DNA of 64,000 nucleotides, taken from Nemertoderma westbladi (taxonomy: Eukaryota > Animalia > Xenacoelomorpha). The stretch is from contig JAUCBJ010003467.1 in NCBI GenBank assembly GCA_032718475.1, positions 62,001 through 126,000 on the forward strand, in the 5' to 3' direction. Position 1 is the first letter of the stretch; each line of letters starts with the position of its first letter. Positions 6,828 through 41,830 of this stretch are shown here, piece after piece. Below the pieces are notes generated by a model that made no database searches, had not been told where the DNA came from, and saw only the letters and a program-made list of their open reading frames with translations. The translations under genes were made by a program, and so were the position numbers.

Positions 6828-7750
6828 AATATGATAAAGATTTGTAGAAAAATCTGGGGGGGGGGGGTCTGTGTCATCAGAAAATGACACTATATTACGG
6901 GACATGGTGTATATTACAGTATTATATATAGATTGGCTTCCCAAATTATTAATAAACACCAAACACAATATATAGGCCTAACAAATATGCCTAATAAATA
7001 ATAAGCAATAAGCTGAAGGCATTCCAGAATTAGCGACCAGCAAGCAATAACAATTAAATTTTTTTTTATGTCTGACAACTTCTAGATTATTGCAAATATG
7101 TTATATAGTTTATTTATGGTATGCAGTAAAATTCATGTAATTTTGACCAGAACTAGTCCCATGACATATCACACCTCACTGCTTTGACGCCACACAATGT
7201 GGGCAATGTGGGGTGCGTGCTGGGACTAGCTCTCATAACTTTGACTTGATTTTTTTTCTCCTATCAACTTTTTTTCAGTTTTGTTACATATTAAACACTG
7301 TCAGAATATCAAAATGAAAAAAGTTTTTTCGACCACCCTAGTATACAGGTAGGGCTATGAGTAAACCTAGTACCGGTACTGTACTGTCAGCTTATAAGTT
7401 TTTAAGTTGTACCGTACTGGTCTGACCAGATAGCGGGGGAAACTGGACGCAATAAAAATTCATCCTTCTCCAGGGGAAATTCGACGCAAATAACAGCTGC
7501 TTACTTCAAAAATAAAACTGTAACCTGTTCTATTGTATTTAGTTTATTGATTTGGTTAAAACAACGTGCAACTGTAACCTGCTCCTTTCCCTAAATTGAG
7601 AATTTAACATTGAGGCGGGATATTAATTCGCCAAGATGGGTTTGCGACCAGTCCAGTCCCCCCCCCCCCCCCCCCCCTGTCTCGGTCTGACAGAGATAGG
7701 CCCAATTCCAGATTCCATTAAGCAGTTAAGAAATACGATTATATTAAATA

Positions 7751-16900: not shown

Positions 16901-19900
16901 TAGGTTTATTTAAGGATCATTTGAGTCGAGTGAGCGTAGGTGATACATCGAACAAGTTTCGCTCGAAACTCCCGTAAATATAGCGAGTAAAACTGTGTTT
17001 AAAGCAACGTCTCCGTGGATGTTTATGTCTTTCCGTTTGTTGGTTGGGTCTTGGGCCTTCATCGCAATAATACCAAAGACGCACGTCTTGTAGGGGAAAC
17101 GCGGGTGATATTTATTCGGTTTTACAATGTTCCTCCATTTGTTCGAAGCTATCTGGGATGACAGGTAGCGGTCGATCGGCGGTAAGATACATCATAGTGA
17201 AATAGAGCCGTTTGAGTTCTATCATAGGGTCATGATGTATACCTTGAGGATATCGAGTTTCTAGATTTTGTTGACTGGCAATATTGAGATATGTTTCTCT
17301 CAGGAATTCCAGATAATCGTTGAAGTCGCTGCGTTTATCCGGCTCTTCAACGTCTTCTCTTTCGAGTCTGTTTCGAATAGAATTCTCGTGTTCCATTCTC
17401 GGTTTATCGTTCCGACTCCGCTGGGTAGGATATTTAAATAAAACCATTTCCCTTTCGGTGTCGACATCGTCCGTATCGTGTAAATCGATAGGATGGCCGG
17501 TAGTTAAGAAGTCCATATACGTACCATTACGATGCGTATAGCGAGCGGTGAATTTTCTATAGTCCAATTCACGCGTAAGTTGCTCCTGGGACATTGGCGG
17601 TTCGATATAACGACCATCATCCTCCGTAGTAGTTGGACCAGCATCGCCGTGTATCAAGCTATCAACAAACGCTTGTAAAGGTAGAGTATATCGCTCCCTG
17701 ATACCAAGATCATCTTCTATCAACTCAGTCATATCTGCTATATGAGTTTATCAATATTATAATGAGTTTATATTTAGGCTAGCGGGCGTCGCTGCCTACC
17801 CCTCTCGGCCCCCGGACAGCGCAAGATCCTCAGCGCTGGTGTACTTTCGCCGATGTGCCTATCGCCAACGTCGTAGCTGCATAACGACCACAACAACCAG
17901 CGCGAGTCACTCCACCATCCATCCCAAAGGCTTAGATTTACTTCAGGTTCTTACTGGAGAGTTAGGGCTACTTTCACAATTGCGACTCGCTACTGTAAAC
18001 ACACTTTAGTAGTAACATTCACCTATAAACGCACAAATTCCACACAACTGTCACAAACCGCACACATTCGGGCCATTTGTCCGTTAGTCAAGTGCCTTCC
18101 AGAATGCCACGTTATTATTGGGTATCCTGGGATACTAGCAGTATGCTATTTATTCCTTATGCTATTCAATGGGCAAGCTTTATTGTTCTTTTAACTCACT
18201 TCTAATTCTAGCGTGGGTGTTGCTATGGTGACATTATGGAACGCTAGCGGTAGAATTAGGCTAATTCTCATGCATACAGATCTGGGATGCTATTTAATAG
18301 TAATTCTTTAATTGTCAATATTCCTCTTTATACATGATTTTATGAATTTTTATCGGCTATTGACCATATGTTGGAGATTCTCGCACACTAATACACTTAA
18401 TAGGGTGAATCTCCGCTCCCATGATCTATTAATTAATGGAATTTTGGGAATGTTATAAATTGTATAAAAATGACAACTTATCAAATTCATTAAAAGATAT
18501 GAATTTAAATTTATTCCCGTAAATTTTATTATTTAATATTAAAATAGACACAATTTTATTCCAGAACATATCTGGGGACTGGGATCCTTGATTCTAGGAA
18601 ATTTGTTCTTTTAAGAGTATCGGTAAGTGCTACGATATCTTAATTGACTAGAATTTTAAAGGATCTAAATTTTGACAGATTTTAATTTATAGATTTTCTA
18701 GAGTTAACTTGTAAGTAGTTACTCTATTGTATCTATTTGACAGATTTTATAAATATTAATAATTAATATTTAAGATGGGCACCGGTTTATTCCAGAACAT
18801 GTCTGGGGACGTTAACCATTGATTCTAGAATTTTGTCTTTCAAGTATATCGGTGGGTGCCGCGATATCTTAATCGACTAGAATTACAGATGGTCAAAGGG
18901 TTTAACAGATTTATTTTGCGTTATACGCTACTGTTAAAGGGACATCACGCTACTATATGTATTATTTAATATACGGTATGAGAGCAATATCGCACGAAGC
19001 AATGTCAGTGAGAAGAGGCAAGTCGTTTCCAAGGTCTACCCAGAGCTTGGTTTAGCCGAGACACGAGGATCTGAATTTTGCATTCCTAATACTCTACTTA
19101 CCAATAATACTTGAATATAGTAGGAGCTTTATTGTACTTTAATAAGTACGGATATTTCATCTTACTGTAGTCACGTATTTATAATGTAATACGGACAGTA
19201 AGGAAAGAGAAAAAGAATTATTTCTCGCCGTCGCACTAAATATATAATATATAAGTAACTAAGTAATAAACGCGAATATATATTGCACTAATCTACTAAA
19301 TAATCGCTAAAATAACATTCTACTAAATAAAATTAAAGAAAACGATTATAATAAAATTACATAATAATACATACATAAATATAAAATAATAAAAACAAAT
19401 GCTGTTACGTTGGGGAGTCCCTAGATGTTTGTTGGATTAGGGAGGTGGTCGTGGGAAGAGTATCTTGCCTTCCATAGTTTCCGGACAGTTCTCGGTCAGG
19501 TTCCAGTAAACATAAACGACCAACTGGGCGATTGAGCTGCTGTGTCTCGAAGACAATTCCAGGTTTCCTCTTCGTCCTGGAATAGTGACGATAGAAACAT
19601 CGCTTCAAATACACGACGGCCTTACAAAGCCGATTCCAGGATCTATAGTGGTCCATCGCTCCCGGCAGGAGAGGTGAGAGTCCCGGCGAGACGTCTGGTG
19701 TTCCAGATCTCCAGTCTCTCTCTCTGATCTCCACAACAGATCGGTTCGCGGTGGGGGAGTTTAGATCCACAGCGTCGTCCCTGGCAATGTGTAATACAGA
19801 CAGATCTATCACGGGTTTAAATAACCTTGATTTACTCGTCCGGGTTTTAGGTTTGACTTTCTCCGCTCCCTTGGCTTGTCTAATCTCAGCCGTGGTAAGA

Positions 19901-22900
19901 TGGGGAGGCCATTCATCTTCTTTACTTAGGAAGTCGGGTCCACCTAACCAGTCTGGAGTATCTGTCAGTTCTTGAGGAGTTGCTCCTCTGGAAGCGATGT
20001 CGGCTAGATTAATCGTCTCGGGGCAATATCTCCATTGATCTACATTAGAGTTAATATCGTCATTATCTGAGGAGTATGGTGTTCCCTCAGTTGGGTCGTC
20101 CACCTCACTGCTCTCCGATTCCCATTCACTTACTTGGTATACCCGTTCTTTTGGTAACCTTTCCATGAGAGTTCTACGGGAAGGGCCAGTAAAGTACCAA
20201 CCTACTCTAGTTCTTCCCGCATAGGCTTGTAGTGGTTGCGGTTGAGCAGGCCGTTTCTCCAATGTCTCAAGCGCCTCATGCGCATTTTGGCCGATGAGTA
20301 TTTGCACTCCAGGGTAATCTGTGCTGAATCTAGGTATATTAAGCTGCTGGGTGAAATCGTCCTCATCCCAGTTATAAGGTTCTACTTGGCTGGTAGCGAA
20401 GTTCTTTATCGCCACCATTTTTACTGACCTTATACTGTGTTCTCCTAGTTCATCCTGGGGGGTGGACAACGCACCTACATAATAATCGGCTATTACTGTA
20501 GATTTCCAAACCTGCATAATTCCTGACATGTTTAACTTAGTTCGGAACTTGGGTTGTCCAGCAAAGATGTCTTCGGCTAGTTCTTTGTCGATGAATGTTC
20601 CTGTGCTACCGGAGTCAAGGAGGGCGTTCACTATATAACTCCTTTCAGGTCCGTGGACCCTCAACTGCACTACGGGAAATTCTCGGATTCCTACATTGGA
20701 AGTTGGTGCTTTCCAAGATGGTTGTCGGTCAGAAGTAGTTAGGAGGAGCTCGCTGTCGGTGTCCCTTTTATACGTAAGTGCTCGATACACTGCGGTATTT
20801 ATCTGGTAACAGGATTCGTTTTCGTCGGAGAATTCGTCCGTATAGAATCCTTCCATCTCAGAACTTTGGTCAGTGTCATTCACATCACTGAATTGGACAT
20901 GTAGTTCGGACTCACTTACCTGACTCGGGCTGTTTCGCTCGAATTCAGTGTGCAACAAGATATGATGTTTCGCACCGCACTTTGCACACCTTGCGTCGGA
21001 GTAACAGGTTCGCCGTTGGTGTCCTTGTCTGAAGCAATTATAACACAACCGCTTATCCCACATGACTTCACGTCTATCCTTTAATGATTTCCTCAGGAAT
21101 TCATCACACGCACTTAAACGGTGGGGCCCGTCACACAGCGCACATTTCGGTTTGATGTTACTTACCTTATTTTGAGTAACGTTGTGCACACTCGTTCTTT
21201 CTTCAGGCTTTCTTACATGAATTCTCTTAGGAGACGTAGGAGGAGTTATTCTTACTTGTTCTCTCCTGTCATTGGTTTGAGACTTGAATTTACTTACGTC
21301 CTTAGGCGCTTTATTGACATAATAAGATCTTTCAGTGTCTTTCCCGCTGTCTTCTTCTTGAGAAGCCTGGCTTTCGCCGTCGTCGGTATAACACACTGGT
21401 GTTACCTTTCTCCTAGAAACGGGTTTCTCACTTACCTTGTTTTCCGGTGTCTTCTCTCTGGACTGCTTTAGGAGCTGTAATTTCACTTCTCCATCTAAGA
21501 ATGACATGAGATCGGCCATGGTAGGGTCTCGTCGTTGTTGTTCCATCATATATAACACTTTCTTATCCCAGCGTGTGCCTACTCCACCCTTAGGTAAAGT
21601 AGAGGCCACGGCTCCAATAACCATAGAACTCTGATATTCATGAGACTTACCTAGCCAATCTAATTGTCTACAGATCTCCTGAATCTCATCGGAAAACTCT
21701 ATAATCCCGCTGCTAATGAATTTTCGGGGCGCTACCAATTTTGCATACAAATACCTAGCTATGTTATTCCTATTACCATACCTGATGTTTAGGGTATCCC
21801 AAACTTGTCTTAATCCATCTGGATGTCCAATAAACTTTAACGCCATTAACTTGGGAGATCCTTCCAAGCACTCGATGAGGAATCTAAGTTTCTCTCCGTT
21901 AGATAGCACAGAGTTCTGTATGTTATCTTTGTAATATTCATTAAAAGGTAACCATTTCATCTCATCTCCATTGAACTTGACGATCTCTCCCACCTTTACC
22001 GCTTGACGGGCTTCGGTTCTAGCCATTTGACGCGTAAAACTTTCTTGGGCCATCGTGTTATTTAATATCGAGTTATTGGTATATAAATTTCTCGGATTAT
22101 GATCAGGTCTATATGGAATATCATTGTCAATAGATTTATAATTACCCTTAATAGGGTTTACTATAGGAGTTTCCACTTCACTAGCAGTATAGATGCGTGT
22201 AGGCTCCACACCTTGCGCATGAAATACTTCAGACCTAACAGGTTGACACATTGTTACAGGGGGTGGTGGTATACCCTTTTGGAGATTTACTAGTTTGTCG
22301 CGTTCTAACGCAATACTTTGCTGCACTTCTTGCAACTCTAACCTGCCCTCTCTAATTGTTCCCTTTAACTGCTGCACAGTCTTCCCCATCTCTTGGACCT
22401 GCTGAGAGGAGCAAGAACGGTGTTCCCTCAGCTGCCCGAGAAGGAGACCCATCTCCCGTCGCCCCTCATCTACCCACTCGACCGCCGAAGCGGGAGGCGC
22501 CAACGTTGTAGCGGGCGGACGAGGGACAACGAGCGACAAATCATTAATATTTCGCTCGGAGTCCAGGACATGAACATTTTCAGGGGTGGTTCTGTGGGGC
22601 ACAGGTAGCTTAGTGCTGTGCAGAGGGAATTTAGAGGTAGGTTCAGGGAGTACAGGTGTCTCTATCACCGAAGGGGTGGCTTCGAGAATAGGCCTAATTA
22701 TTTCAGGCTCATCTACTATAGTAGGGAGTCTTTCTATTTTAATTATTTGGTCTGTGGGTTCTGTACTACCTAAGTCTGTGTTAGTTAGTTGCCTTCTAAC
22801 AGCTGGGGGCAAATCAGGCAATTTCGACGGTGGGACATTCTTCTACGTCTATTTAGACGAGATCTATTTCCTCCGCCTTCAGGATCGGTGGTATCGCCTT

Positions 22901-25900
22901 CATCAGATGATGTATATCCCTGTCTTTTGGGAGTAGATCGACTCATCATCTGCATTTGACTAGCTGTTAACTGTTTATTTATGCAGTCTTGATTCTCTTG
23001 AATATTTTCCAACTCTAGTTGGGTGGTCTCTTCAGATGTTCTTTGTTCTGCTTCTGCCACTGCCTCTGCCGCTTTTCTTTCCGCTTCGGCCGCTGCCACT
23101 GCCGCTTTTCTTTCCGCTTTGGCCGCTGCCACTGCCGCTGCTACTGCCGCTTTTCTTTCCGCTTCGGCCGCTGCCACTGCCGCTTTTCTTTCCGCTTCTG
23201 CCGCTGCCACTGCCCGCTGCCGCTGCTGTTGTCTTTCTGTACGTTTTTTCTTGACTTGTTCTTCTTGGACCCTAGCGATGCGGAGTCTTTCATCAAATTT
23301 AGCTTGGTTCGCAGCTAACATTTCCACATCGATTGCGTCCAACACAAGCTTGGCTCCTTCACTATTAGGGCGAAGTCCAGACAACCGTCTCCTCAACTCT
23401 TCGTCACCTACAAATCGTTGATAGTCTGACAGATAGATGTCAATAGCATCCCTCTTATGCGGTTTTTCTGCTGTCACTTCACTTTCCACTTGGGAAAAGG
23501 TAGCGTCTGTTGATTCTCCATGGGTTGAGCGCTCAGCCAGCTGAGATTACTACTGGGCAGTTCCTTGAACTTGGAGACTCACCCGCTGAAACCAAGTCTT
23601 TACGGCAACTTGCAACGACGTGTCTTGTCTTCTTTTCGAAGCCTCCTCAAAGGCCGATAAGATTAGTCTGATTCGTAGAATTCTTTCTCTAACTTGATAA
23701 AGCAGCTCTCCCTGCTCTTGAGGTCCTTGGGGTTGTCGAAACAGTTGTTCCTCTAATCGCTCCATAGAGCTGAAGAATCCCTGTACGTATCCTGCTGCTG
23801 ACCTCTTCCACACAGCTGGAACGCTGGTTTCTTTTGTCACTCCCATCCTGTGTATGTCTTCCCAGGCAGCTTCCGATAAGTCATACGGTAGTCCGGGTCC
23901 GGGGAAGTTCCATTGCGACTCGACAATAGACTTCAGTTCTTCCCTTGTATATCCCGCATAACTATCCTTGGTCGATCGCTTACTTCTCGCCCAATCAATC
24001 TGGTGTTCCTCCACCGCAATCAATACCCTAGTGAGTACGGCTGCAGGAAGGATGAGAAGGGGATCCGAATAAACCGCATCTGCCATCCTTGCTCCGCACT
24101 CGGGTGTCAGCTCTACAGTATCCGCACTACTGGAGCTGTCGGGCCGCTGAAAAATAAGTTCTCGGCTCGAGTGTTGCTGCTGTTCCGCTGCTTCTTGGTC
24201 CCGCTTGACCTGAGCTCGAGTGCCTATGATAGACCTATGGTGTTGGACTAGCCTAGGGTCTGATACTACTACTGGAGGGATGATCTTTCTTACAGTAGGA
24301 GGTGAGTTGAACTTCGGTCTCACGCGTTCCACACTCCTGTCTGGGTCACAGATGGTTGTATCTAGGAGACTGTCTGACAGGTTTTGCTTTGTGTCAGACA
24401 TGTTTGTTTGTACAGTTGAATGCCTACTGCTATATTACAGTTTAAGCAAGTCTAGTAATTCAGTATCACCGTTAGCCTAGTAATTAATTACCGATATCGT
24501 TACTCTATGTAACGTGATATATATACAATATATTAGAATACCGGTATACACTTATAGTATATATAAGTATAATTATGGACTAGAATTAATTACAGAATAC
24601 CGGTATATAATTTCAGCACAAATATATAGAAATATATAATAGGCCTATATCGTAAATACCGGTATACTATACAGCTTACACTTATAGTATATATAAGTAT
24701 AATTATGGACTAGAATTAATTACAGAATACCGGTATAATTTCAGCCTAAATTTGTAGAAATAAATATAATAAGCCTATTGTAAATACCGGTATATCAATT
24801 ATTTTAGAATAATTGAATTTCTGAATTTTAGGGGTTACTTGGTTACTTTCCTTTACTTTATTACCGTTATTTAAGCAGTAGTCCAACTGATATTAAGACC
24901 TAATTGTTGTATGACAGGCCTACTATTTTATAAATCGGTTTGAGTTGATTTATAATATATATACCCCTATAATGGGTTTTGTCAATATTTGAAATAAATG
25001 TTATTATTTCTGGGAAGGAGTCACTGCACAGAAGCTGTACGCTCTCAGTGGAGTGCTACTTGTTGGATACTAAAACAAATAATTCTAATTTACCTAAGTT
25101 ACTTAATACTACAAATTACGTACAATTCGGGGTGAGATTACAATCTCTAAATAAACACAAAAAATTACACGTACAAATTTTTAGGGTAATTTTACAAGGA
25201 GTCTACAAACCAGCCTAACAAAGGGTTAGAATATCTGGTTATTACAAACAGACAGGGTACTACGGTATTTGAAAATAACAAAGCAGTAGTAAATATACTG
25301 CATTGTCCAGATAGGAAAAATACCACCGTCTGACGACTTATAGCCGTATCGCTATAAGTACTACGTTATGTATCACGGAGTGTTCCTACCTAGAAGTTAA
25401 TTACCGCGGTCTACCAGAACCAACGTGCCTATTAACCACTTTACAACACAAATATACTGCCTACACACTAATTACCTTCGGAAAGCACTGTACACTAAAC
25501 CCTAAATTAGGTACAAGTACTTATACGACAAATAATCAGCAGTTAGAAATACTTGTACAGCTAAAAGAACCACGGTATCTGCTGGAGTGACCGGGGCATA
25601 AAATCACCAGTCTTTACCTACGCCAAGCAGCCCTGATGTAGTACCGAGGTTAATTTAACTATAACGGTATGTATAACAAGCACAATTACTGTAGGAATAA
25701 ACTTGGGTTGTGAATGTTGCGAATAATCGCATAAACTCTGAATAATAAATATTACGCTACGCGTACAGACTACTCAAACAAAATACAGACCAAACGCTGG
25801 CAGACTACTATCAAGCCTAAACAAACTACAGTATATGCAGACTCCGAAATGGTTAGTTATTATGCGTTCTAACCGAGTAGTACGACTTATTCTTTCAAGG

Positions 25901-28900
25901 GGATTTACCTCACAACACTGGAAGCCCCTACGTTCCTAACTAGTACTTTATCGGACATACACTCTACAGACACCGCAATCTCTTCAGACCTAACAACAGC
26001 CAGACAATAATCCAGCCTACAAATTATCTAAATAAGAAATATTACGCTACCCGTACAGACTACACAAACAAAATACAGACCAAACGCTGGCAGACTACTA
26101 TCAAGTCCAAACAAACTACAGTATATGCAGACTCCAAAATGGTTAGTTAGTATGCGTTCTAACCGAGTAGTACGACTTATTCTTTTGAGGGGATTTACCT
26201 CACAGCACTGGAAGCCCCTACTTTCCTAACTAGTACTTTATCGGACATACACTCTACACACACTACAACCTCTTTAGACTTAACAACAGTCAGACAACAG
26301 TCCAGCCTACAAATTATCTGTACAATCTGAGCAGGCTTACACATCTTCTGCTCAATATTAACCTACAAATAAATAAAACTGACAGAAATAGGCCTAAGTA
26401 AAATCCCAATAAAAACCAGGCGTCCCCGATTACTTATTAAGACCTACCAGTATATAATTATCAAAATCGAATAATACTGCTGTACTTGTACTGCTGTAAG
26501 TACCGGTCCGGGTGGTTAGGTAGTCAGGCCTACTAAGTACCGGTCGACCGGTACTTCAGCTTTATTGCCTACTGCAATACAGAAGCAATATCTGTTATTG
26601 TTCGCGCTTTCAGACCTTTAGCAGTTTAACCTGCCAAATTTAGATGTCTTCTAGATTATAAATCGACTTTAGCCTATGACGAGTATTTGATACACTACAT
26701 TAGCCGAAGCCAGTCTATGCGCGACCATTCACCCACTGGATATACCCGGGAGACTGGATTCGGAAGCTTTGACCTTATTGCGGTGTAGGCCTACTGTATT
26801 ATTCGACTGATCGTTAATATATAATCTCTGACCAATATTATTCACTTTCGGGAAATATTAACAGTTCCTTTAGGACGTGGCGCTCTAAATATGTAAACAG
26901 AGTTATGACTTACACTAGACACAACAGGATGGCTATGGATTCACGTATAAAGCGCATTCTTTAGGAGATGCTTTGTTATCAGTCACAATCAGGCACACTA
27001 CCGCACAATACTGCACACCGATCTGCCGACCTTCACTAATTTTAGTCACATATAAAGAGAACAGCAAACGACTCATGTAGTGCCTATGAAATAGCATTAG
27101 ATTCACTCCAAAACCAATATAATGTAAGTCGCAATTGTTATATGTAACCGGTCTCTTACCTTCAGTATATCAAGAAGATTGGGGGTTTTATAATTATTTA
27201 TCGATATTATCCAAATATAATAATATTCCATCAACTGATATAATTAATAACCAACAGTAAATAGCAGTAAAAATGCGGTGTGGTATGTTAGATTGGATTG
27301 ATTGATTAGTTTGATAACAGATATACGTTTCTATGATCAAGCCTACTAATGTTTGGCTAAAGCCTGAAAACACAGAAATTCCAAAGCCAGTCTTCTGGCA
27401 TCAGGAAAAAAGGTAAACATTGACCCATAATGCATTGCGCGATTTCCCGGAGGTTTCTGTACAAAAAACAGGAGAATCGCTCTGATTGGTTGTCCGAACA
27501 AAGGAACAAAGAAAAAGCTACACGTGTACATATCAGCTGTTAGCTGTCGTCATAGTAACTACACTGTGTCAAGAGGATTTTAGCGTATTGCGACATAAAA
27601 TTGCTAGTTATGTCCGCTAAAGTACACATACAGAAGAAATGGCTTTTTATGTCCACTAAAACACCGGTACAGTAAGGAAACGGCTTTTTATGTCCGTTAA
27701 ACCAACTACAGAGTACTTTGCGGGGAAAATAACCAGCTAATTCCGCAAAAGCTTTTACAATTTGAGATCGGGATTGCAACTGTCGGGATCCCGATTTTCG
27801 GCATCGGGATTTTTAATTTTATTGCGGCCAACTCATCTAAAACTTAAAATAGCTATCTGCCCTGCCAAAGAACAAAAATGCAACAAGACAAGAATGCTTT
27901 ATAGGAGTAAAAATAATCGATTTTCGATATTCTCAATGTGCAGCTTCAATGCAGCAGGCTGATTGTAGTGGTAGTCGTATTAAATAAAGTATAGGGTGTG
28001 GGATTGAATGTGTATCTTTTACTTTCAGGGAAAAGTATAAGAATCAACTGGAGCAGAATAACAAATAAATAAAAAGATTTAGAAAGATCTACTTTTTTCC
28101 ATAGGGTTCACAGCCAGTTTATTTCCCACGTACGTATTTCATTTAATTCGTGTTAAATATAATTTCAGCAACATTTTTAATAGAAATATACTTTTCATGC
28201 CCTATATTTTTTATTTATTATGCCATATTTAATTTTATTACTTTTTATGCCTTATATTTTTTACTCGTTTCCCATATTTATGTAGGCCAAACAGTAACAC
28301 GGTACAATGTACAATAAGGTGGAGTGATTTGCACTTTTTTTCGAATTTGTGTTGGAACCGGTGTGGGAAAGTTGTGAAATCGGTCAAAAATAACTACTTC
28401 AAAGTTTTACAAAATTTCATCAAAATCTTCACCTCTCTCACGACTTTCCAAAATTTGAAAATTGATGCGCGCCTTCAAAAATTTTAAAATTTTGTAATTT
28501 CATGCAAGCCTTTATTTTTTACTGAACCATGCAACAGTATCTTTAAAATGAGTCAATGGGAGCTGTGAAAACCTTTGATCTATTTTGGTTTATATCTTCA
28601 CCTCCCTCCAGAGGTGACAAAATGGATAAAAAAAGTGCAAAAATTTAAAGTACTCTTGTACTTCCAAGTACTATTTTAAACCTACTGCGTACTTGATTTG
28701 CTAAACATTACCACAAATACTAATAAAGAGATTGCGGGATTTTTAAAATTGTTGTTGATGAGTGTACTGTCAGGTGATGGCATTCTGAAATCAGTAATTC
28801 ACTTTTTACATACTCTAAAGTCAGTCTTGACATACTGACATAACATGTTAGTATTAGTACTGTATGTCATTTCAGAATTTACTTTTGCTACTTGTATCGA

Positions 28901-31900
28901 TTTATCAAAGACCAAAATGATCAATTGTACCAGAAACATAACTGTCATCTTTAACTAGGTAGGCCTAACTGTTTCTGGTACACACAACTGTGTTTAGTGA
29001 ACAGCTTGCTAGGGCAATTTATTAGCAAAATTTGGACAGTAGGCCTATACACAAATTTCAAATTAGAATTCATGGACATACATGTAAGTCTAATCTCACT
29101 ATTAGTTATTGAACACTAATATAAGTTATAAGTTAAACTTGAAAGCTGGTCACTTCAACATGTCAGTGGATCTTACACCATCAACAAGTGGAATACGTAT
29201 TGATACAAGGCCTAAGTGTCCTATATTTGGGTATGCAACGGAACTGCCTAAAAATAAGCTGCCTACATATCGTGACATATTGCTTTGCTTTCTAAACTTG
29301 CGACAACCATTTAGACGAGGAACAGCTGGAAATAAAAAAACTGCTGAAATATCTGCCAGTGTTGCCAAACGCAAACATGTTGCAGAGGTGTGGCACCGAG
29401 CATCCATTCCAACAATGCATTATAAAAAGTTAATCCAGAAGGTATCAAAATATTACGAAAAGTACCAGAAACTCCTTAAGAACATTAAGGGTCGTTCTCA
29501 GACTGAGGCTTTTAAGTTAAAGTTAATCGATTTTAAAACGGGTGGAGATTTGTTATTCGATGTTGCTTCCTGTAGGTGTGTAAACTTTGTAGAATGTCAT
29601 TGTGATAAAGCTCTAAAGATACCTATTATAGAACGTGCATTCATTACTGACCAAAGAAGTTCTCGACGAATGGCCATTGGAGGGGTGGATATCAAGGAAA
29701 CTGAATTGAGACATAAACGCAACCTTCGGAAACAGGCTAATAGAGCTACTAACCTCGGTGACAATGCTACAGATCCTGTCCAAGTTGATACTGATTCCAG
29801 TTCTATAGCATCTGATCCAGATTCTGATAATGATTTTGTAGCCACAATTCGAAAACAAAGTAAACCATCATTATCCAGGTTATCTAGAGAGTGTGACCGG
29901 TATGGAGTGTCAGACCGTGCTGGTGCAGCTATTGCTACGGCCATTCTTGAAGATATTGGCATGGTTGGTCAGGAATCTTCTGATCTTGTTGTAGATCGCT
30001 CAAAGTTACGTAGAGAACGTTCAAAGCACCGTGCAGGTTTACAAAGTTCCATAGTTGTCGAAGTCAAAGGCCTCTACTTTGATGGGAAAAAGAACAGCAC
30101 TAGAACACAGACAAAGGTAGGAACTAGAGTCTTCCCACGAATGAAAAGTGAAAATCATATTGCTCTGGTAGAAGAACCTGGTTCAAAGTATCTTGGGCAT
30201 GTGGCGGCAATTTCAGAAAAGTCGGTAGATGTACTTAATTCAATAGAAAGTTTTTTCAATCGAAATGACATTGCGATTATTGATCTAGATTGTGTGGGGA
30301 GTGATGGCACTAATGTAAATACAGGTAAGAATAGAGGCATCATCCGCCGTCTGGAAGAATCAGTGAAGCACCCAGTCTGTTGGTTCATTTGTTTACTTCA
30401 TTGTAATGAATTACCATTACGTCATTTATTTTCTCACTTGGATGGCACAACATCTGGTCCGAACACATTTACTGGGCCAATAGGAGGTCAGCTGGCATTG
30501 TGTCACCATCAACCAATTGTGAAATTTAAAGCCATTGATGGACCACATCTATCACCGATTCTAGACAAATATAAGGACCTCAGCAGTGATCAGAAGTATC
30601 TGTATGAGATAGTGCATGCTGTTAAGTCTGGCAGCTGTTCTGACACTATTGCACATTGGACCCCAGGTCCAATATCCCATTCCAGATGGTTAACGGTAGC
30701 CAGTCGTCTCCTTCGTCTCTATGTATCCACTCAGGAACCCACTGACACATTAGTAACGCTGTCCACATTTGTTATTAAGGTGTATGCACCACTATGGTTT
30801 GAAATCAAAGTTAACTGGTTATTCTTTCATGGAGCTTGTCATTTAGCTAAGATGATTTCCTATAGTAACTACTTACCAGATCATCTTAAATCAATTGTCC
30901 AAGATGTCATTCAGAGAAATGGGTATTTTGGACATCCTGAGAACATTCTTCTCGCGATGATTTATGATGAAAACAAATACATCCGTCAGCTAGGGTATAG
31001 ACGAATTCTTGCCGCCAAAAGAGAGTTTGACGCCAGAGAAGACCCCATACAAAAAATTCGGGTATTTGCACCACCGCCATTAAACTTTGACATCACTGAA
31101 TCAGATTACATCGGACTTGTTGATTGGTCAGTAGTAAAGAAATCTGTTCCTCCATTGTTGCGCAAGCTTACTGTTGAGGAGTTGACTGTACTCTGTACCT
31201 CTGGTGACATCATCGATCTACCAAAATTTCCCCATCACACTCAAGCTGTAGAAAGGATTATACGACTGATATCACAAGCAGCTTCTACACTTGTTGGTGG
31301 AGACCGTCGTGATGGCTACATAAGTTCGAAGTTGGAGTCCCGGTCTTTGATTCCTTCATACCAAACAAAGAAAGACTATAAATTCACTACCTAAACTATG
31401 ATCATTCAACTCAACTCTTAAATCTGCAGAGCCGTGTCCGTCTGTAGACTATGTAATATAAACTGATTAATGGTAGTCTTGGGGGCAATTTAAATCAGTA
31501 TTATATACTTGAATGTCATATAGTATAATGGTTCATTCAGAAATAAATAAATTGAATATTGTTGTAGTCCAAAGTTATTTAAGTTTCTCATAATTTACGA
31601 AAGCTCATTTGACATTTTTGACACATTGCACCCCAAATTGTTAACAATTGACATCCCTTGAGGGAGGTGAAGATGTTAACCAAAATTTTTAAAAAAATTT
31701 TGCGGTTACTTTTGACTCTTTTGAAAGATTTTATTGCCAGGTTCAGTCAAAAATAAACGCTTGTATCAAATTACAAAATTTTAAACATTTTTGAAGGCGC
31801 GCACCAATTTTCAAATTTTTGAAGGTTGTGAGAGAGGTGAAGATGTTGATGAAATTTTATGAAACTTTGTAATAGTTATTTTTGACCTATTTCACAACTT

Positions 31901-32390
31901 TCCCACCCCGGTTCCAACTCAAATTCGAAAAAAAGTGCAAATCACTCCATCTTACTAAATAACCCCCCCCCCCCCCCCCCCCACCCCTTAATGATGAGAA
32001 ATCATTTATATTTTTCGTACCAGTAAATAAATAATACTGTATTAGGTAGATTTAATTACTTATTCGTTGCTTGCTTAATTTTATGTGTGAATTTGTGTTT
32101 AAACAAAATATTTGGCAAAATGTAATTAATAATCTTAAAAATGCTGCCATCGAAATTACAAAATATATTTAATCTAGGAAGTAAAGTTTGACTGCTATTC
32201 AATCAAAGGAGAGGTTTTGGCGTTAGTCAAGGATTCCAATACTGGTACAAAGCTCGACCAGATGAGATTGTCACCGGTAGATGTGTATCGCGGTAACGAT
32301 GGTTTCACTACTGAGGGTGCCTCGGATGGCGAGATCATTTACTTAAAAAAATGTCATGAAACAGAAGTGAAGAAAGAAATTGTTGGATAA
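10916..32390 (+). CDS. Candidate spliced host gene of unknown function; exons 10915-10971, (11015-11053), 11313-11424, 32178-32390
   Basis: AG/GT boundaries (tcag|A ATG; AC|gtatgt; tactttcag|G; AAG|gtatgt; aatctag|GAA) have compatible phases and give an open frame MHSVKVVGPCGF..EKYKNQLEQNILCRITDFEDDF..EVKFDCYSIKGEVL..KEIVG*. AATAAA lies ~40 nt after the stop. No homology recognised; the 39-nt exon may instead be LINE sequence. Confidence 0.4.
11095..11250 (+). mobile_element. RTE-clade (RTE-X-like) LINE 3' ORF fragment
   Basis: Translates to HLRFAGHCFRREDQPV..LVLWQPHG; matches the copy at 56455-56795. Confidence 0.7.
11484..12644 (-). repeat. 3' LTR of the BEL element
   Basis: Direct repeat of 26599-27759 (offset 15115). 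Confidence 0.95.
12723..14438 (-). pseudogene. Extra 3' (env-position) coding region of the BEL element, broken into several ORFs; unknown product
   Basis: ORFs 14438-13935 (frameshifted copy of 17732-17112), 13606-13361 and 13166-12723, with open protein-like stretches between them (e.g. VTEAEERVVRNVLDTIFQKIRKG...), all on the element's sense strand. Confidence 0.5.
16111..16838 (-). pseudogene. Duplicated C-terminal fragment of the BEL polyprotein
   Basis: Near-identical to 19405-20132 (QWRYCPETINLADIASRG ... RPVGRLCLLE); no upstream part. Confidence 0.85.
17112..17732 (-). CDS. 206-aa hydrophilic ORF of unknown function inside the BEL element
   Basis: ATG-initiated ORF downstream of gag-PR; no signal peptide or TM segment evident; the frame stays open past single stops. 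Confidence 0.5.
   Translation of the reverse strand: MTELIEDDLGIRERYTLPLQAFVDSLIHGDAGPTTTEDDGRYIEPPMSQEQLTRELDYRKFTARYTHRNGTYMDFLTTGHPIDLHDTDDVDTEREMVLFKYPTQRSRNDKPRMEHENSIRNRLEREDVEEPDKRSDFNDYLEFLRETYLNIASQQNLETRYPQGIHHDPMIELKRLYFTMMYLTADRPLPVIPDSFEQMEEHCKTE
19405..22821 (-). CDS. BEL/Pao Gag-protease polyprotein with internally deleted pol
   Basis: DUF1759-like Gag (KFNGDEMKWLPF...EKLRFLIECLEG); BEL triple knuckle (CALCDGPHRLSAC / CYNCFRQGHQRRTC / CAKCGAKHHILLH); protease LLDSGST; then directly the RNase H tail QWRYC..NLADIASRG and the BEL C-terminal motif RPVGRLCLL. Confidence 0.9.
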   Translation of the reverse strand: MPDLPPAVRRQLTNTDLGSTEPTDQIIKIERLPTIVDEPEIIRPILEATPSVIETPVLPEPTSKFPLHSTKLPVPHRTTPENVHVLDSERNINDLSLVVPRPPATTLAPPASAVEWVDEGRREMGLLLGQLREHRSCSSQQVQEMGKTVQQLKGTIREGRLELQEVQQSIALERDKLVNLQKGIPPPPVTMCQPVRSEVFHAQGVEPTRIYTASEVETPIVNPIKGNYKSIDNDIPYRPDHNPRNLYTNNSILNNTMAQESFTRQMARTEARQAVKVGEIVKFNGDEMKWLPFNEYYKDNIQNSVLSNGEKLRFLIECLEGSPKLMALKFIGHPDGLRQVWDTLNIRYGNRNNIARYLYAKLVAPRKFISSGIIEFSDEIQEICRQLDWLGKSHEYQSSMVIGAVASTLPKGGVGTRWDKKVLYMMEQQRRDPTMADLMSFLDGEVKLQLLKQSREKTPENKVSEKPVSRRKVTPVCYTDDGESQASQEEDSGKDTERSYYVNKAPKDVSKFKSQTNDRREQVRITPPTSPKRIHVRKPEERTSVHNVTQNKVSNIKPKCALCDGPHRLSACDEFLRKSLKDRREVMWDKRLCYNCFRQGHQRRTCYSDARCAKCGAKHHILLHTEFERNSPSQVSESELHVQFSDVNDTDQSSEMEGFYTDEFSDENESCYQINTAVYRALTYKRDTDSELLLTTSDRQPSWKAPTSNVGIREFPVVQLRVHGPERSYIVNALLDSGSTGTFIDKELAEDIFAGQPKFRTKLNMSGIMQVWKSTVIADYYVGALSTPQDELGEHSIRSVKMVAIKNFATSQVEPYNWDEDDFTQQLNIPRFSTDYPGVQILIGQNAHEALETLEKRPAQPQPLQAYAGRTRVGWYFTGPSRRTLMERLPKERVYQVSEWESESSEVDDPTEGTPYSSDNDDINSNVDQWRYCPETINLADIASRGATPQELTDTPDWLGGPDFLSKEDEWPPHLTTAEIRQAKGAEKVKPKTRTSKSRLFKPVIDLSVLHIARDDAVDLNSPTANRSVVEIRERDWRSGTPDVSPGLSPLLPGAMDHYRSWNRLCKAVVYLKRCFYRHYSRTKRKPGIVFETQQLNRPVGRLCLLEPDRELSGNYGRQDTLPTTTSLIQQTSRDSPT
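22785..23489 (-). CDS. BEL upstream Gag segment 2, coiled-coil with AEAERKAAVAA repeats
   Basis: Same frame as 24401-23550 after TAG TAA; 33-bp coding repeat at ~23050-23215; overlaps the main ORF in the -1 frame. Confidence 0.6.
   Translation of the reverse strand: MESEVTAEKPHKRDAIDIYLSDYQRFVGDEELRRRLSGLRPNSEGAKLVLDAIDVEMLAANQAKFDERLRIARVQEEQVKKKRTERQQQRQRAVAAAEAERKAAVAAAEAERKAAVAAAVAAAKAERKAAVAAAEAERKAAEAVAEAEQRTSEETTQLELENIQENQDCINKQLTASQMQMMSRSTPKRQGYTSSDEGDTTDPEGGGNRSRLNRRRRMSHRRNCLICPQLLEGN
23550..24401 (-). CDS. BEL upstream ORF / Gag segment 1 (283 aa)
   Basis: First long ATG ORF after the ~2.2-kb leader; ends in tandem TAG TAA. Confidence 0.65.
   Translation of the reverse strand: MSDTKQNLSDSLLDTTICDPDRSVERVRPKFNSPPTVRKIIPPVVVSDPRLVQHHRSIIGTRAQVKRDQEAAEQQQHSSRELIFQRPDSSSSADTVELTPECGARMADAVYSDPLLILPAAVLTRVLIAVEEHQIDWARSKRSTKDSYAGYTREELKSIVESQWNFPGPGLPYDLSEAAWEDIHRMGVTKETSVPAVWKRSAAGYVQGFFSSMERLEEQLFRQPQGPQEQGELLYQVRERILRIRLILSAFEEASKRRQDTSLQVAVKTWFQRVSLQVQGTAQ
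25741..26320. repeat. 290-bp direct tandem duplication in the BEL 5' leader (shorter repeats also at 24535-24795)
   Basis: AAATATTACGCTAC..CAGACCAAACGCTGGCAGACTACTATCAAG.. starts at 25747 and 26037. Confidence 0.9.
26588..26598 (-). promoter_or_regulatory. Non-tRNA primer-binding site, candidate self-priming PBS (ATAACAGATAT)
   Basis: Abuts the 5' LTR end, lacks TGG, and is the exact reverse complement of minus-strand LTR sequence at 27324-27314. Confidence 0.65.
26599..27759 (-). repeat. 5' LTR of the BEL element
   Basis: Direct repeat of 11484-12644; contains AACCAATCAG (minus strand, ~27482-27491) and CACGTG (~27521) in the putative U3. Confidence 0.95.
28315..31954 (+). mobile_element. 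hATm-type DNA transposon with long imperfect TIRs, potentially autonomous
   Basis: TAAGGTGGAGTGATTTGCACTTTTTTTCGAATTTG.. is inverted at ..CAAATTCGAAAAAAAGTGCAAATCACTCCATCTTA, with inverted similarity over ~300 bp; single internal ORF. No clean 8-bp TSD (ATGTACAA vs CTAAATAA). Confidence 0.85.
29160..31394 (+). CDS. hAT (hATm-like) DDE transposase, 744 aa from the first ATG
   Basis: Motifs LYFDG, GSDGTNVNTG, CLLHCNELPLRHLF, HSRWLT, GYFGHPENILLAM, FPHHTQAVER. Confidence 0.9.
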   Translation: MSVDLTPSTSGIRIDTRPKCPIFGYATELPKNKLPTYRDILLCFLNLRQPFRRGTAGNKKTAEISASVAKRKHVAEVWHRASIPTMHYKKLIQKVSKYYEKYQKLLKNIKGRSQTEAFKLKLIDFKTGGDLLFDVASCRCVNFVECHCDKALKIPIIERAFITDQRSSRRMAIGGVDIKETELRHKRNLRKQANRATNLGDNATDPVQVDTDSSSIASDPDSDNDFVATIRKQSKPSLSRLSRECDRYGVSDRAGAAIATAILEDIGMVGQESSDLVVDRSKLRRERSKHRAGLQSSIVVEVKGLYFDGKKNSTRTQTKVGTRVFPRMKSENHIALVEEPGSKYLGHVAAISEKSVDVLNSIESFFNRNDIAIIDLDCVGSDGTNVNTGKNRGIIRRLEESVKHPVCWFICLLHCNELPLRHLFSHLDGTTSGPNTFTGPIGGQLALCHHQPIVKFKAIDGPHLSPILDKYKDLSSDQKYLYEIVHAVKSGSCSDTIAHWTPGPISHSRWLTVASRLLRLYVSTQEPTDTLVTLSTFVIKVYAPLWFEIKVNWLFFHGACHLAKMISYSNYLPDHLKSIVQDVIQRNGYFGHPENILLAMIYDENKYIRQLGYRRILAAKREFDAREDPIQKIRVFAPPPLNFDITESDYIGLVDWSVVKKSVPPLLRKLTVEELTVLCTSGDIIDLPKFPHHTQAVERIIRLISQAASTLVGGDRRDGYISSKLESRSLIPSYQTKKDYKFTT

Positions 32391-32963: not shown

Positions 32964-35277
32964 GAAATTTTAAAGAAATTAAAAAAAGATATGAGCGTTC
33001 AAATCTTGCATGGTTTTGCACCGGTGCGAGGCTATTTTATTCTATTTAGTAAATAAACCATATTCTGGAACATTTTTTAAATGTATGAATAGCTACGTAA
33101 TAGTATGATTAAAGATGTAATGCATTGTTGCCCAGCTACGTATTTGGATAAACAAACTATTCTAGATTATGACGTATTTATTAAATAGAATAAAATAGCC
33201 TCGCATAGGTGCATAACCATGCAAAATCTGAACGCCCATATCTCCGCTATTTTTCAACGAAATTCAAATTGTGTTACATATTTGGAATCCTTGTACGGTC
33301 AGCTTTCTATCAGTACCCACCAATCACTATAAGGTTAAATAATAACTGCGGTGTAACTGGTGTAATATCGCTGGAGACTTTTTTTTTAAGTTTTAAACGC
33401 TTTTTTTAAACTTTAACGCTTTTTTTAAACACTTGTAGCTAAAGATTGAAAGCAAAAATAAAAAGTCTGGCTCACCCAGTCAGTAGTGGTCGGGAGGTGA
33501 AACTATCTCTGTTTCAAATTTCATGCAATCTCATTACGATTTGTAGAAAAATTAGGGGGGGGGGGGGGTGTCACTGAATTACGACACTATATTCTGGGAA
33601 ATGGTGTACTTTGGGAGCCGTCACTTAGTTGCACTCCCTTCTATAACTAGCGTTACTACATCGAAGGACTCTCGCAAAACTACAACGCCCAGTTTTTGCC
33701 ACAGTGGTGGATAAACGATGCTCATTGACGTGACACTGCGAAAGTTATACAATCTCACTTAACAAATACCGGTAGGAATAATTATACAATTCGGTAACAT
33801 AGTATAGTATAAAATCCTGCATGACCCTACAGATACCACAATAACTGATAGCTACACGCCATCTCGGCGAACTCTATGTCGGAGTATTGCGTTGTTCTAT
33901 ATGGCAGCCGAACTGTCCAGGTAAGGCAAAGCATTCTAGACGTTTGGACAATTCCTATCTAATATTTGTTGTTTTAACTGCAACTGTTGTGTCGGATAAT
34001 TGATTGATTACCGACAAGTAAAGAAAATCTGACACAAATTGAAAGATTTTTGATAGATTATTCCATAATTGATTACAACTACTGCCCACACAACCTCACG
34101 CAAGATGAACTGTTTCTTTTTTAATTTATAATAATATATCGATTGTGTTAAAGGTAAGTAATATAGGATGTCAAGTATGAAAGTCGAATTATCATTCAAC
34201 ATCCTCCTGACACTAATTATTGTTCTTCCTCACACCAGTTAACTATATTTACTGATGATATAACTAATTAGAAGACCGTAAGGGCTTCTTGCTGTCAAAA
34301 AACACGTCTGTGGGGGTGTGTGTATGTGTGTGTGTGTGCACTGGTTAACGCTACATACTGTGGACGTAAGTGCCATACAATACCCACGTTCTGGGGACCT
34401 TTCGCGAACTGGGGACGTCCCCAGAACATTCTGACTGGAAATTCGAAATCTTCATTGCCAAATTAGTCTAAATATGAAATTTCACCGTATTTAGGCTCAG
34501 TCCCCACTTTGTTTGTGTTAAGCCGCACTCGTATGTGTTCGGTGTGTATGGGATGTAAATATTGATGTCCCCACTATAACAGTGATAAGTATACACACAT
34601 TATCTACGTCATTTTGTGACGTCACAATGTCCCCAGTGAGCTTAATTTTTAACGACCCCGGTTTGTGGTTGAAATTAAGTATATTATGAGTTATGTTCAA
34701 TTATTTATGGATTAGTTAGTCAGGTCTGTCTTTGAGACAATGCAGCTCAGGCAATCCCTAGATAATGTTTTTTTTATTGCTTTTATACACTCGTGAATAA
34801 TTGTAAAAGTTAATATTTCATTATGAGTTACCTAAGCACCCCTTGTGGTGCAACTTTCCTCAGTTACTATAACAATGGATTTTCACTTTGTCGATAGTGC
34901 TAAACAATCCCGCATGCACTATGCATACAAGCATGTAGCAATTTTTTTAAAAAATATGTGGACAAATATCGTAATACGGCTACTGCTACTTTTTTTTCTG
35001 CGGGGGCATTAATTAAATTCATGTTTAAAATAAATACAAATAAGGTGGAGCACAACGATATATGATATAACTCTTATCATTCAAATTACATTCAACTCAT
35101 TCAATTATATTGAATATATCATGAATTTTATACCTTTAATTTTTTAGACCCTTCTACGTACTGTAGTTGAAATAGACATTATAATAAATTAACGAAAACA
35201 CACCCATTCTAAATAGTGTACTGTACCTGGCGCATATCTGGGGACATTAGTTTTTTAGTGCTGAGAGTATTATATTA

Positions 35278-37212
35278 TGCCCTACGTTCTACTTATGTAG
35301 GTAGTTGCAATGGACGTTAAGAATATATAATAATATTAATAAATTAACGAAAACACACCGTTCTAAATACTGTCCATTGCGCACATCTGGGGACATTAGT
35401 TTTTGTATTGTTTTTCTGCAGACCATACGGTATGTAGTTGCAATGGACATTAAGACAATTTTTTATATATTGACGAAAACACACCATTCTAAATACTGTC
35501 CCTTACGCACATCTGGGAACATTAGTTTTTTTAGTGCTGGGAGTATTATAATAGGCCCTACGTATAGTTGCAATGAATGTTACTACTACTACTACTACTA
35601 GGTCGAGCGAACTCGGACAGTGGAAATGAGATCCTTCCAGGCTTCCACAGATCTCGCGGTCAGCCACACACAGTCCAGGTGGTCCCAGCAACAGAGCGCA
35701 CACAGATCTCGTGGTCAGCCACACACAGTCCCGCCGGTCCCAGCAACAGAGCGCACACAGATCTCGCGGTCAGCCACACAGAGTCCCGGCGGTCCCAACA
35801 ACAGAGCTCACACAGATCTCGCGGTCAGCCACACACAGTCCCGGCGGTCCTAGCAATAGAGCGCACACAGATCTCGCGGTCAGCCACACAGAGTCCCGGC
35901 GGTCCCAGCAACAGAGCGCACACAGATCTCGCGGTCAGCCACGCACAGTCCCGGTGGTCCCAGCAACAGAGCGCACACAGATCTCGTGGTCAGCCACACA
36001 CAGTCCCGGCGGTCCCAGCAACAGAGCGCACACAGATCTCGCGGTCAGCCACACACAGTCCCGGCGGTCCCAGCAACAGAGCGCACACAGATCTCGCGGT
36101 CAGCCACGCACAGTCCCGGTGGTCCCAGCAACAGAGCGCACACAGATCTCGCGGTCAGCCACACACAGACCCGGCGGTCCCAGCAACAGAGCGCACACAG
36201 ATCTCGCGTTCAGCCACACACAACTGCCCTGTTATAATAAATCTTTACAGTATATATAAATAAATTTGTAATTTGATAAATTTGATTTGAATTTAATTTA
36301 ATTTGATTTAATAAAAACTGTATATGTATGTATTGTGCCCTACGTTCTACTTATGTAGGTAGTTGCAATGGACGTTAAGAATATATAATAAATTAACGAG
36401 AACACACCGTTCCAAATACTGTCCCTTGCGCACATCTGGGGACATTAGTTTTTGTATTGTTTTTCTGCAGACCATACGGTATGTAGTTGCAATGGACATT
36501 AAGACAATTTTTTATATATTGACGAAAACACACCATTCTAAATACTGTCCCTTGCGCACATCTGGGAACATTAGTTTTTTTAGTGCTGGGAGTATTATAA
36601 TAGGCCCTACGTATAGTTGCAATGAATGTTACTACTACTACTACTACTAGGTCGAGCGAACTCGGACAGTGGAAATGAGATCCTTCCAGGCTTCCACAGA
36701 TCTCGCGGTCAGCCACACACAGTCCTGGCGGTCCCAGCAACAGAGCGAGAGTGCACACAGATCTCGCGGTCAGTCACACACAGACCCGGGGGTCCCATCA
36801 ACAGAATGCACACAGATCTCGCAGTCAGCCACACACAGTCCCAGCGGTCCCAGCAACAGAGCGAGAGTGCACACAGATCTCGCGGTCAGTCACACACAGA
36901 CCCGGCGGTCCCAGCAACAGAACGCACACAGATCTCGCAGTCAGCCACACACAGTCCCAGCGGTCCCAGCAACAGAACGCACACAGATCTCGCGGTCAGC
37001 CACACACAGTCCCGGTGGTCCCAGCAACAGAGCGCACACAGATCTCGCGGTCAGCCACACACAGACCCGGCGGTCCCAGCAACAGAGCGCACACAGATCT
37101 CGCGTTCAGCCACACACAACTGCCCTGTTATAATAAATCTTTATATATAAATAAATTTGTAATTTGATAAATTTGATTTGAATTTAATTTAATTTGATTT
37201 AATAAAAACTGA
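35278..37212. repeat. ~1.06-kb tandem duplication; each copy holds a short RTE 3' end and a 55-bp minisatellite
   Basis: TGCCCTACGTTCTACTTATG at 35278 and 36336. The 55-bp unit CACAGATCTCGCGGTCAGCCACACACAGTCCCGGCGGTCCCAGCAACAGAGCGCA occurs ~10 times (35646-36220) and ~7 times (36695-37117). Minus strand reads WKDLISTVRVRST* followed by (TAG)n. Confidence 0.85.
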
Positions 37213-37243
37213 TTCATGAACAAAACAGGTTCATGATTTAATT

Positions 37244-37912
37244 TTGCAACCGCATCCTACAGAACCATTTTCTCATCTACGGACTGCTATGGTTCATCGA
37301 TTAGCTGCTTCCGAGACAGCGCGCCTTAAGCAGTTATTGTCAACCGAGGAACTCGGAGATAGGAAGCCCTCTCAAGTGCTACGGCACATGCAACAATTAC
37401 TGGGGACAGCTACAGTCGAACCCCAACTAATGCGAAATCTGTTTATCCAGAAGTTGCCTTCCAGTGTCCAAACTATTCTGGCTGTCTGTCCATCCACCAC
37501 GGATTTAGTCACCCTAGCTGATATGGCTGATAAAGTCATAGAAGTGACTCAACCTGAAGTCCACGTAAACCACCTAACGACTAGTACCGGTATTTCTGGT
37601 CTACCTCTGGCTGCGGGTCAAACGGCTGTGGAAAACTCATCTGTTCTACAGGATCTCATAAAAACTGTTAACGAATTGCGCTTGGAAGTGAACGAAATCC
37701 GCTGTGGCCATCCAACTGACCGAGACAATCCATGTTCGGACAACTACTCAACATCCCGGTGCATGCGTAGCTGTTCCCGTTCCGTTGGTTGGTACAATTC
37801 TCAAGGATCGCTGTGCTATTACCACTGGAGATACCGTGCTAGAGCGCAGAAGTGTACTAAACCTTGCGAATGGCAGAATCAGAACAACAACCATGGACAG
37901 TCGGAAAACTAG
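37244..37912 (+). pseudogene. Gypsy gag, N-terminally truncated
   Basis: CsRN1-type Gag motifs; ends GGAAAACTAG overlapping pol in the -1 frame. Confidence 0.8.
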
Positions 37913-40900: not shown

Positions 40901-41129
40901 CATACTCAAGGGCGATAAACAAGATGTCGTATCCTTAGACCGTATTAAACCCGCCATCCTAGGTTCTACAACGTTACACTCCAAGACATGCAACGTAGGG
41001 AGTGGGAACGGTGAAGCAAAGCCAAAACAAACTGAAACTGGAAACACACATAACAACAAGGGCGAAGCAATTCATCCTGCTACAGACTACATTAGTAAGC
41101 GAGGCAGACGCGTAAAATTTCGGTTTTAG
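37864..41129 (+). pseudogene. Gypsy pol (PR, RT, RNase H, IN), frameshifted
   Basis: LIDSGA protease; [11 protein letters not shown] but GRSGD in place of YxDD; [12 protein letters not shown] RNase H; H-H-C-C, IHIDFVG, IIHDRG, NGMVERWH integrase; split over four ORFs. Confidence 0.9.
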
Positions 41130-41292
41130 AATTTATTTGTTTATATATATTGTTAGTAGCTCCGCTAGTAGGTCGGGGAGTGATATAGTGATATGAAAAT
41201 ATGATATTGATATGGAGGGAAATTTAAAAATATAATTATATATATATCTACATGAATTGATTTTGATTATTATTTTTCTCTTATACCCAAAA

Positions 41293-41830
41293 CACTACAG
41301 AGGGGGTGGGGGGAGTAGTCGAACAAACCTCGACAGAGTGGAGGATGTAGTCGGACATACCCCGACAGTATGGAGGACTCTATAACCGGACATACCACTA
41401 CATAGGGGGTGGGGGAGTAGTCGGACACACCTCGACAGTGTGGGGGATGTAGTCGGACATACCTCGACAGTGTGGGGGACTGTAGACGGACATACCACTA
41501 CAGAGGGAGTGGGGGGAGTAGTCGGACATACCTCGACAGAGTGGAGGATGTAGTCAGACATACCCCGATAGTGTGGAGGACTCTACAGTCGGATATACCA
41601 CTACAGAGGGGGTGGGGGGTGTGGTCGGACATACCTCGACAGTGTGGGGGACTGTAGTCGGACATACCTCGACAGTGTGGGGGACTGTAGTCGGACATAT
41701 CACTACAGTGGGGGCGGGGGAAGTAGTCGGACACACCTAGACAGTGTGGGTGACTGTAGTCGGACATACCTAGACAGCGGGGGGGGGGTGAGGGGGGGGG
41801 GGTGGGGGGAGTAGTCAGACATTCCTCGAA
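41293..41830. repeat. Complex G-rich tandem array (GTAGTCGGACATACCTCGACAGTGTGGGG, ~33-35 bp variants)
   Basis: About 15 imperfect units. Confidence 0.85.

Follow-up and report, generated by a model that had tools for sequence, protein, structure and literature searches.

A BEL/Pao retrotransposon of Nemertoderma westbladi with a predicted self-primer in its LTR

The window, the stretch of 64,000 nucleotides of Nemertoderma westbladi DNA analyzed here (contig JAUCBJ010003467.1, positions 62,001 to 126,000; all coordinates below are those of the window), contains on its minus strand a BEL/Pao retrotransposon whose primer-binding site (PBS) lacks TGG and is exactly complementary to a segment of its own LTR. 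Comparative analysis makes it probable that this element primes reverse transcription not with a tRNA but with 11 bases of its own RNA, and self-priming seems to characterize a BEL/Pao lineage and not just the window family. A fuller account, to which we give somewhat better than an even chance, is that a broad animal BEL/Pao lineage swapped tRNA priming for self-priming independently of Tf1/sushi, that in many of its families the primer comes into being only when the spliceosome takes an intron out of the LTR, with splicing licensing reverse transcription, and that the window family belongs to it without having the intron and shares its cut-site signature (a primer ending in A-pyrimidine, followed by C).

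The element runs from 27759 to 11484 on the minus strand (16.3 kb). The 5' LTR (26599 to 27759, minus strand, 1161 bp) has TG...CA ends, and the 3' LTR (11484 to 12644, minus strand) is identical to it at 1149 of 1161 positions (99%). A 5-bp target-site duplication, CAAAT, flanks the element upstream (27760 to 27764) and downstream (11479 to 11483), and a short polypurine tract (12645 to 12652, minus strand) adjoins the 3' LTR; the terminal features asked of a BEL/Pao element are all present. A single frame (19405 to 22842, minus strand) encodes Gag, with DUF1759 (Pfam E 3.6e-11) and three zinc knuckles at residues 567, 600, and 619, and a protease motif, fused to a C-terminal remnant of RNase H. 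The homologues of the Gag-protease frame are BEL/Pao polyproteins with PF03564, PF05380, and PF18701, most of them matching at about 25-35% identity. A profile built from ten relatives matches the element at profile positions 199-747 (Gag-protease) and 1302-1373 (the RNase H remnant), and with this profile no reverse transcriptase or integrase was detected in the element. The original prediction that this is a BEL/Pao element is supported by DUF1759, the three zinc knuckles, the protease, and the Pao-type RNase H remnant; the Ty3/gypsy-type Gag and Pol that membership of Tf1/sushi demands were not found, the homologue domains being those of BEL/Pao. The protein evidence thus supports placement in BEL/Pao despite the missing tRNA-type PBS. 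The element is a non-autonomous retrotransposon and a recent copy, and would need reverse transcriptase and RNase H supplied in trans.

Two open frames upstream of gag (22785 to 24434, minus strand) have no Pfam match, with stops and a frame change between them and before gag, and a 3.3-kb tandem duplication (13544 to 20132, minus strand) has copies that are 99.7% identical. A 290-bp tandem duplication (25737-26316, minus strand) lies in the long leader, downstream of candidate splice acceptors. Elsewhere in the window, a reverse transcriptase frame (PF00078; 50641-52146, minus strand) is separate from the BEL/Pao element, and Ty3/gypsy-type protease, reverse transcriptase, RNase H, and integrase frames (37220-40891) adjoin 55-bp tandem arrays at about 35200-41800 on the plus strand. 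An element at 28315-31954, probably a DNA transposon, has long terminal inverted repeats (about 180-300 bp) and a 762-residue frame (29106-31394) that has no Pfam match. A frame at 7748-8686 (plus strand) has an H3/CENP-A-like histone fold (PF00125), possibly that of a centromeric H3 variant, after a long N-terminal tail that carries 30-bp repeats, and two genes are each one intron-free open frame, Derlin-2 (53478-54215, plus strand; 62-72% identity to matches from many phyla) and a phospholipase D-family gene (57894-59324, plus strand).

The PBS, ATAACAGATAT, occupies 26588 to 26598 on the minus strand, starts with AT, and follows the 5' LTR directly (offset 0); there is no TGG within the first 99 leader bases. 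Its exact complement, the predicted self-primer ATATCTGTTAT, lies at 27314 to 27324 (minus strand; LTR positions 436-446), with C as the next base at 27313, and a second copy of this 11-mer is present in the 3' LTR at 12199 to 12209 (minus strand). The pairing stops at 11 nt, extending to neither side, and the minus strand contains no complement of 12 nt or longer to the PBS. Both observations on which the original prediction was built, the lack of TGG after the 5' LTR and the exact 11-nt LTR complement at the boundary, were reproduced, and its estimate of about 1e-3 for a chance match holds, the complement of the PBS 11-mer at offset 0 being found in 20 of 20,000 dinucleotide shuffles of the LTR. 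When offsets 0-5 are allowed, 60 of 20,000 such shuffles carry an 11-mer complement, and in the element itself an LTR complement of at least 11 nt occurs at 8 of 13,934 internal start positions, the PBS included. The available text of a published paper defines a predicted self-primer by an LTR complement of at least 10 bp to a region that starts 0-5 bp after the LTR (PMC6317226); the window element has 11 nt at offset 0, and its PBS is not of the tRNA type.

It is nevertheless conceivable, though improbable in our estimation, that the match arose by chance or is left over from copying, and that this defective element has lost its true tRNA PBS. Large internal deletions in the element fit such a history, and given the many LTR elements that are scanned, an event with a probability of 1e-3 to 3e-3 occurs sometimes. 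However, the intact termini, the target-site duplication, and the 99% LTR identity indicate recent retrotransposition with a non-TGG PBS. Contigs assembled from public DNA runs bear on the same point. In a wide alignment of 26300-27850 with these contigs, family members cross the LTR-PBS junction with point variants only, and no TGG-type PBS was found, both statements referring to the 40 of 390 difference rows that were listed. A normal TGG PBS in other copies, feared when self-priming was proposed, is therefore absent from the family variants listed. A sister subfamily, indicated by a loose end in run X6, has different letters at positions 5 and 8 of the PBS and likewise lacks TGG.

A narrower alignment, of 27284-27362 with contigs of four DNA runs (X1-X4), delimits a block at 27313 to 27362 (minus strand), 27362 being merely the edge of the aligned stretch. 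Contigs from all four runs align from 27313/14 upward and have unrelated letters below about 27312, so that similarity across the family ends one base beyond the 11-mer, at the 3' edge of the primer. Records at least 99% alike to the window on 27284-27362 number 7 of 83 in X1, 0 of 55 in X2, 0 of 40 in X3, and 0 of 3 in X4; most records thus differ from the window, yet this alignment listed no substitutions, and it is silent both on the invariance of the 11-mer and on compensating changes in it. The LTR segment just 3' of the primer (27184-27312) is highly variable among family contigs, unlike the upstream block and U5. A promoter or initiator by itself could account for the conserved block, and the reading of the match as chance or relic would take the block as core promoter only.

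Two PBS variants are frequent in the wide alignment. The commonest change, A to G at position 6, accounts for 176,067 of 276,108 summed depth in X1 (64%) and 165,623 of 205,827 in X3 (80%), and retains a G-U pair, the duplex changing from −10.5 to −9.8 kcal/mol. The change of C to A at position 5 (83,261 of 280,818 summed depth in X1, 30%; 84,556 of 205,858 in X3, 41%), when combined with that at position 6, would weaken the duplex to −4.3 kcal/mol unless the LTR changes alongside. Self-priming predicts matching LTR changes for such PBS variants.

If the family PBS variants lack LTR compensation, as they may, this would favor another explanation, in which the PBS is primed by some host RNA that is not a tRNA 3' end, either a tRNA half or a different small RNA, and the LTR complement arose by chance or forms a structural helix. 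We regard this as unlikely, to about the same degree as a chance match. The primer may loosely resemble an internal part of U2 snRNA and the anticodon loop of tRNA-Asn. A search with Rfam gave 0 matches at gathering score across the window; on 26400-27800, which covers the LTR and leader, it gave one chance match and none that is relevant, which argues against a host RNA as primer, and no tRNA genes were found within the window. Priming by half-tRNAs is documented in Ty1/copia lineages in the available text of PMC6317226. An objection to a host RNA comes from the relatives described below: the letters of the PBS vary by family and track the LTR of the family concerned, with the match spanning splice junctions in 12 families, and a fixed host RNA would not yield such a pattern.

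The relatives were collected by alignment with ten homologues as query, a query that favors one part of BEL/Pao, against about half of a metagenome collection; the best 80 of 519 confirmed stretches, representing 79 loci, were used. An exact 24-base LTR pattern found no match in the metagenome contigs, and a single locus, lacking terminal repeats, came from the viral collection. Both LTR ends could be defined in eight loci (seven families). Six of these seven families have no TGG and a self-complement of 10-15 nt, which in four of them lies across the junction of an intron inside the LTR; the seventh, L053, has a TGG site, and no self-complement was found. The contiguous complements, in L024 and L017, are 10 nt long and were equaled in 0 of 300 and 11 of 300 shuffles, respectively. 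The other four span GTAAG...CAG introns, with 12 nt in L020, 15 nt in L049 (the same as L048), 12 nt in L052, and 15 nt in L065, and were reached by 1, 0, 1, and 0 of 100 shuffles, respectively.

In a wider scan, which took in 49 of the 80 loci, each having a long match to the polyprotein and no fewer than 150 bases upstream, and required a junction complement of at least 11 nt after CA/TA, such complements were found in 14 of 49 loci (12 families) versus 5 of 245 shuffled controls. In these 14 loci (L002, L003, L004, L005, L013, L020, L037, L048, L049, L052, L054, L065, L066, and L071), the PBS pairs only with the exon-exon junction, the LTR intron is 75-423 nt long, and the part of the primer that precedes it is just 4-10 nt. 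Four contiguous cases (L010, L060, L062, and L077) were hand-picked from a noisier list, with the LTR end unverified, and are counted within the 18 families considered here. The PBS begins with GT or AT in 17 of 18 families (13 of 14 without the four hand-picked loci), and C directly follows the primer in 15 of 18 (11 of 14), both features lying outside the selection made by the scan. CA is present within −5 to +3 of the primer start in 15 of 18 families, against a background of 0.34 (p 2e-5; 11 of 14 without the hand-picked loci); these GT/AT, C, and CA motifs were noticed only once the hits had been seen. The CA at the 5' edge of the primer fits a transcription start site there in the relatives, in which the paired segment may bear a short unpaired 5' extension. 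The window element shares the AT start of the PBS and the following C with its relatives, which speaks against a match by chance; the 5' edge of its own primer is TA, not CA. Pairing is kept across families with different letters. Together with the conservation edge in the window family, the comparison across families lends self-priming support that is partial overall.

A primer assembled by splicing was also considered for the window element and was rejected. A candidate donor with the consensus AG/GTAAG (27155 to 27161, minus strand) lies downstream of the primer and takes no part in building it; across a junction the best complement has 10 nt, against 11 nt for the contiguous one, and was equaled by 13 of 100 shuffles. 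A CCAAT motif (27485 to 27489, minus strand) is located about 165 nt upstream of the primer and may have a promoter role. The CCAAT at 27489 and the donor at 27160 fit a transcription start between them. A TATA-like motif at 27192 is weak as a rival promoter because about 94% of the X1 depth carries another letter there.

The placement of the window element relative to the self-complementary families is unstable, and these relatives are only about 25-28% identical to it. In a quick Gag-protease tree of 73 rows, the window element is on a long branch outside the self-complementary clade. In a more careful tree of 38 rows, to which the RNase H remnant was added and from which L016, L062, and L065 were omitted because they have no long open frame, it is the neighbor of that clade (85/96, not starred), at a distance from the TGG family. 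Grouping it with the TGG clade was rejected at the borderline (p-AU 0.046) and grouping it with the outer clade was not rejected (p-AU 0.41), both for groups that were named after the tree had been seen. A shared origin of the window element and its self-complementary relatives is likely from these sequence comparisons; the low identity and a tree that does not firmly seat the window element among them leave some room for a chance match in this one family.

Folding provides weak evidence either way on the primer-PBS helix, the modeled outcome varying with the length of the leader. The duplex is AU-rich; with the leader cut at 26560 the minimum-energy fold contains it, and its probability is near 0 when the RNA runs to 26400, where, in a model without pseudoknots, a crossing helix between U5 and the leader wins. 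The latter pairs a leader segment (26465 to 26477, minus strand) with U5 at 26796-26808 through 11 perfect pairs and crosses the primer-PBS helix. As a special duplex, the U5-leader pairing was not supported, since the energy of its best 40-nt window was matched by 21 of 60 shuffles. The competition of this second 11-bp complement indicates that long-range helices occur in the RNA of the element, and raises the possibility that the primer-PBS pairing is real but regulatory, acting in RNA circularization, packaging, or a translation switch, with priming by another route. This appears slightly less probable even than the two alternatives above, because the helix begins within 0-4 nt of the LTR end in all 18 families and in the window element, at the place required for the end of a minus-strand primer, and because a further primer site is absent.

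Self-priming by the window element would proceed as follows. By analogy with Tf1, transcription would start at or a few bases upstream of 27324, and the 5' end of the RNA would fold back over about 715 nt onto the PBS. The RNase H of a helper element would then probably make a cut that separates 27314 from the C at 27313, a conserved base that gives indirect support for a cut at this edge of the duplex. Reverse transcriptase acting in trans would extend the new 3' end into U5. Splicing would assemble the primer in the many relatives in which the LTR intron splits it, whereas the primer of the window element would be ready-made.

The closest known parallel is Tf1 of Schizosaccharomyces pombe, in which, according to the available text of PMC7175516, the RNA's initial 11 bases anneal to the PBS and RNase H cleaves between bases 11 and 12. 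The accessible parts of other papers describe self-priming of Tf2 (PMC5341516) and of Tj1 from S. japonicus (PMC4600332), and either report or predict it for elements of the Tf1/sushi, Tcn1, and TAR copia kinds (PMC6317226; PMC6934838). As these sources describe Tf1, Tf2, Tj1, and Tf1/sushi, the window element resembles them in having an 11-nt LTR segment complementary to a non-tRNA PBS that adjoins the 5' LTR. Unlike the Ty3/gypsy-type Tf1/sushi elements, it has BEL/Pao Gag, protease, and RNase H, a loop of about 715 nt, and no reverse transcriptase in this copy, and, whereas the start and cut of Tf1 are known, its own are predicted from sequence. Many BEL/Pao relatives split the primer with an intron, and no such split is met in the available descriptions of Tf1/sushi. 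The predicted self-primers of Tcn1 (Ty3/gypsy) and TAR/Houba/Osr-1 (Ty1/copia) satisfy the same definition as that of the window element, but those in the available text are plant and fungal elements of other superfamilies, and BEL/Pao is not in that list. An origin separate from Tf1/sushi, suggested when the element was first noted, is plausible for BEL/Pao as a whole; the trait is not special to the window family, its signature recurring in many BEL/Pao families, often with an intron-split primer.

With Belpaoviridae (genus Semotivirus), the element shares the DUF1759 Gag, three zinc knuckles, protease, Pao-type RNase H remnant, and an animal host, and its LTR fits the range of 0.2-1.2 kb. 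The ICTV profile of that family describes tRNA-primed replication from an 18-nt PBS for tRNA-Arg or tRNA-Gly (PMC8742986); unlike the elements of the profile, the window element has no such PBS and is non-autonomous. A term search of a BEL/Pao survey (PMC3118150) returned no occurrence of primer, PBS, tRNA, or priming, the available text of the Sinbad paper (PMC554778) contains no occurrence of tRNA, PBS, or priming, and the accessible parts of PMC3601003, PMC13524379, and PMC8220671 contain nothing on BEL/Pao priming. No report of self-priming in BEL/Pao was found among the open-access articles searched. Self-priming here would extend a mechanism known from other elements to a superfamily whose published description has it tRNA-primed, and its novelty is provisional. 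If it is correct, BEL/Pao would be the third LTR superfamily known or predicted to self-prime, and BEL/Pao elements in which annotation finds no PBS would be explained. Such elements may be freed from the supply of tRNA and from control by tRNA fragments, and the splice-built primer of the relatives would tie retrotransposition to splicing.
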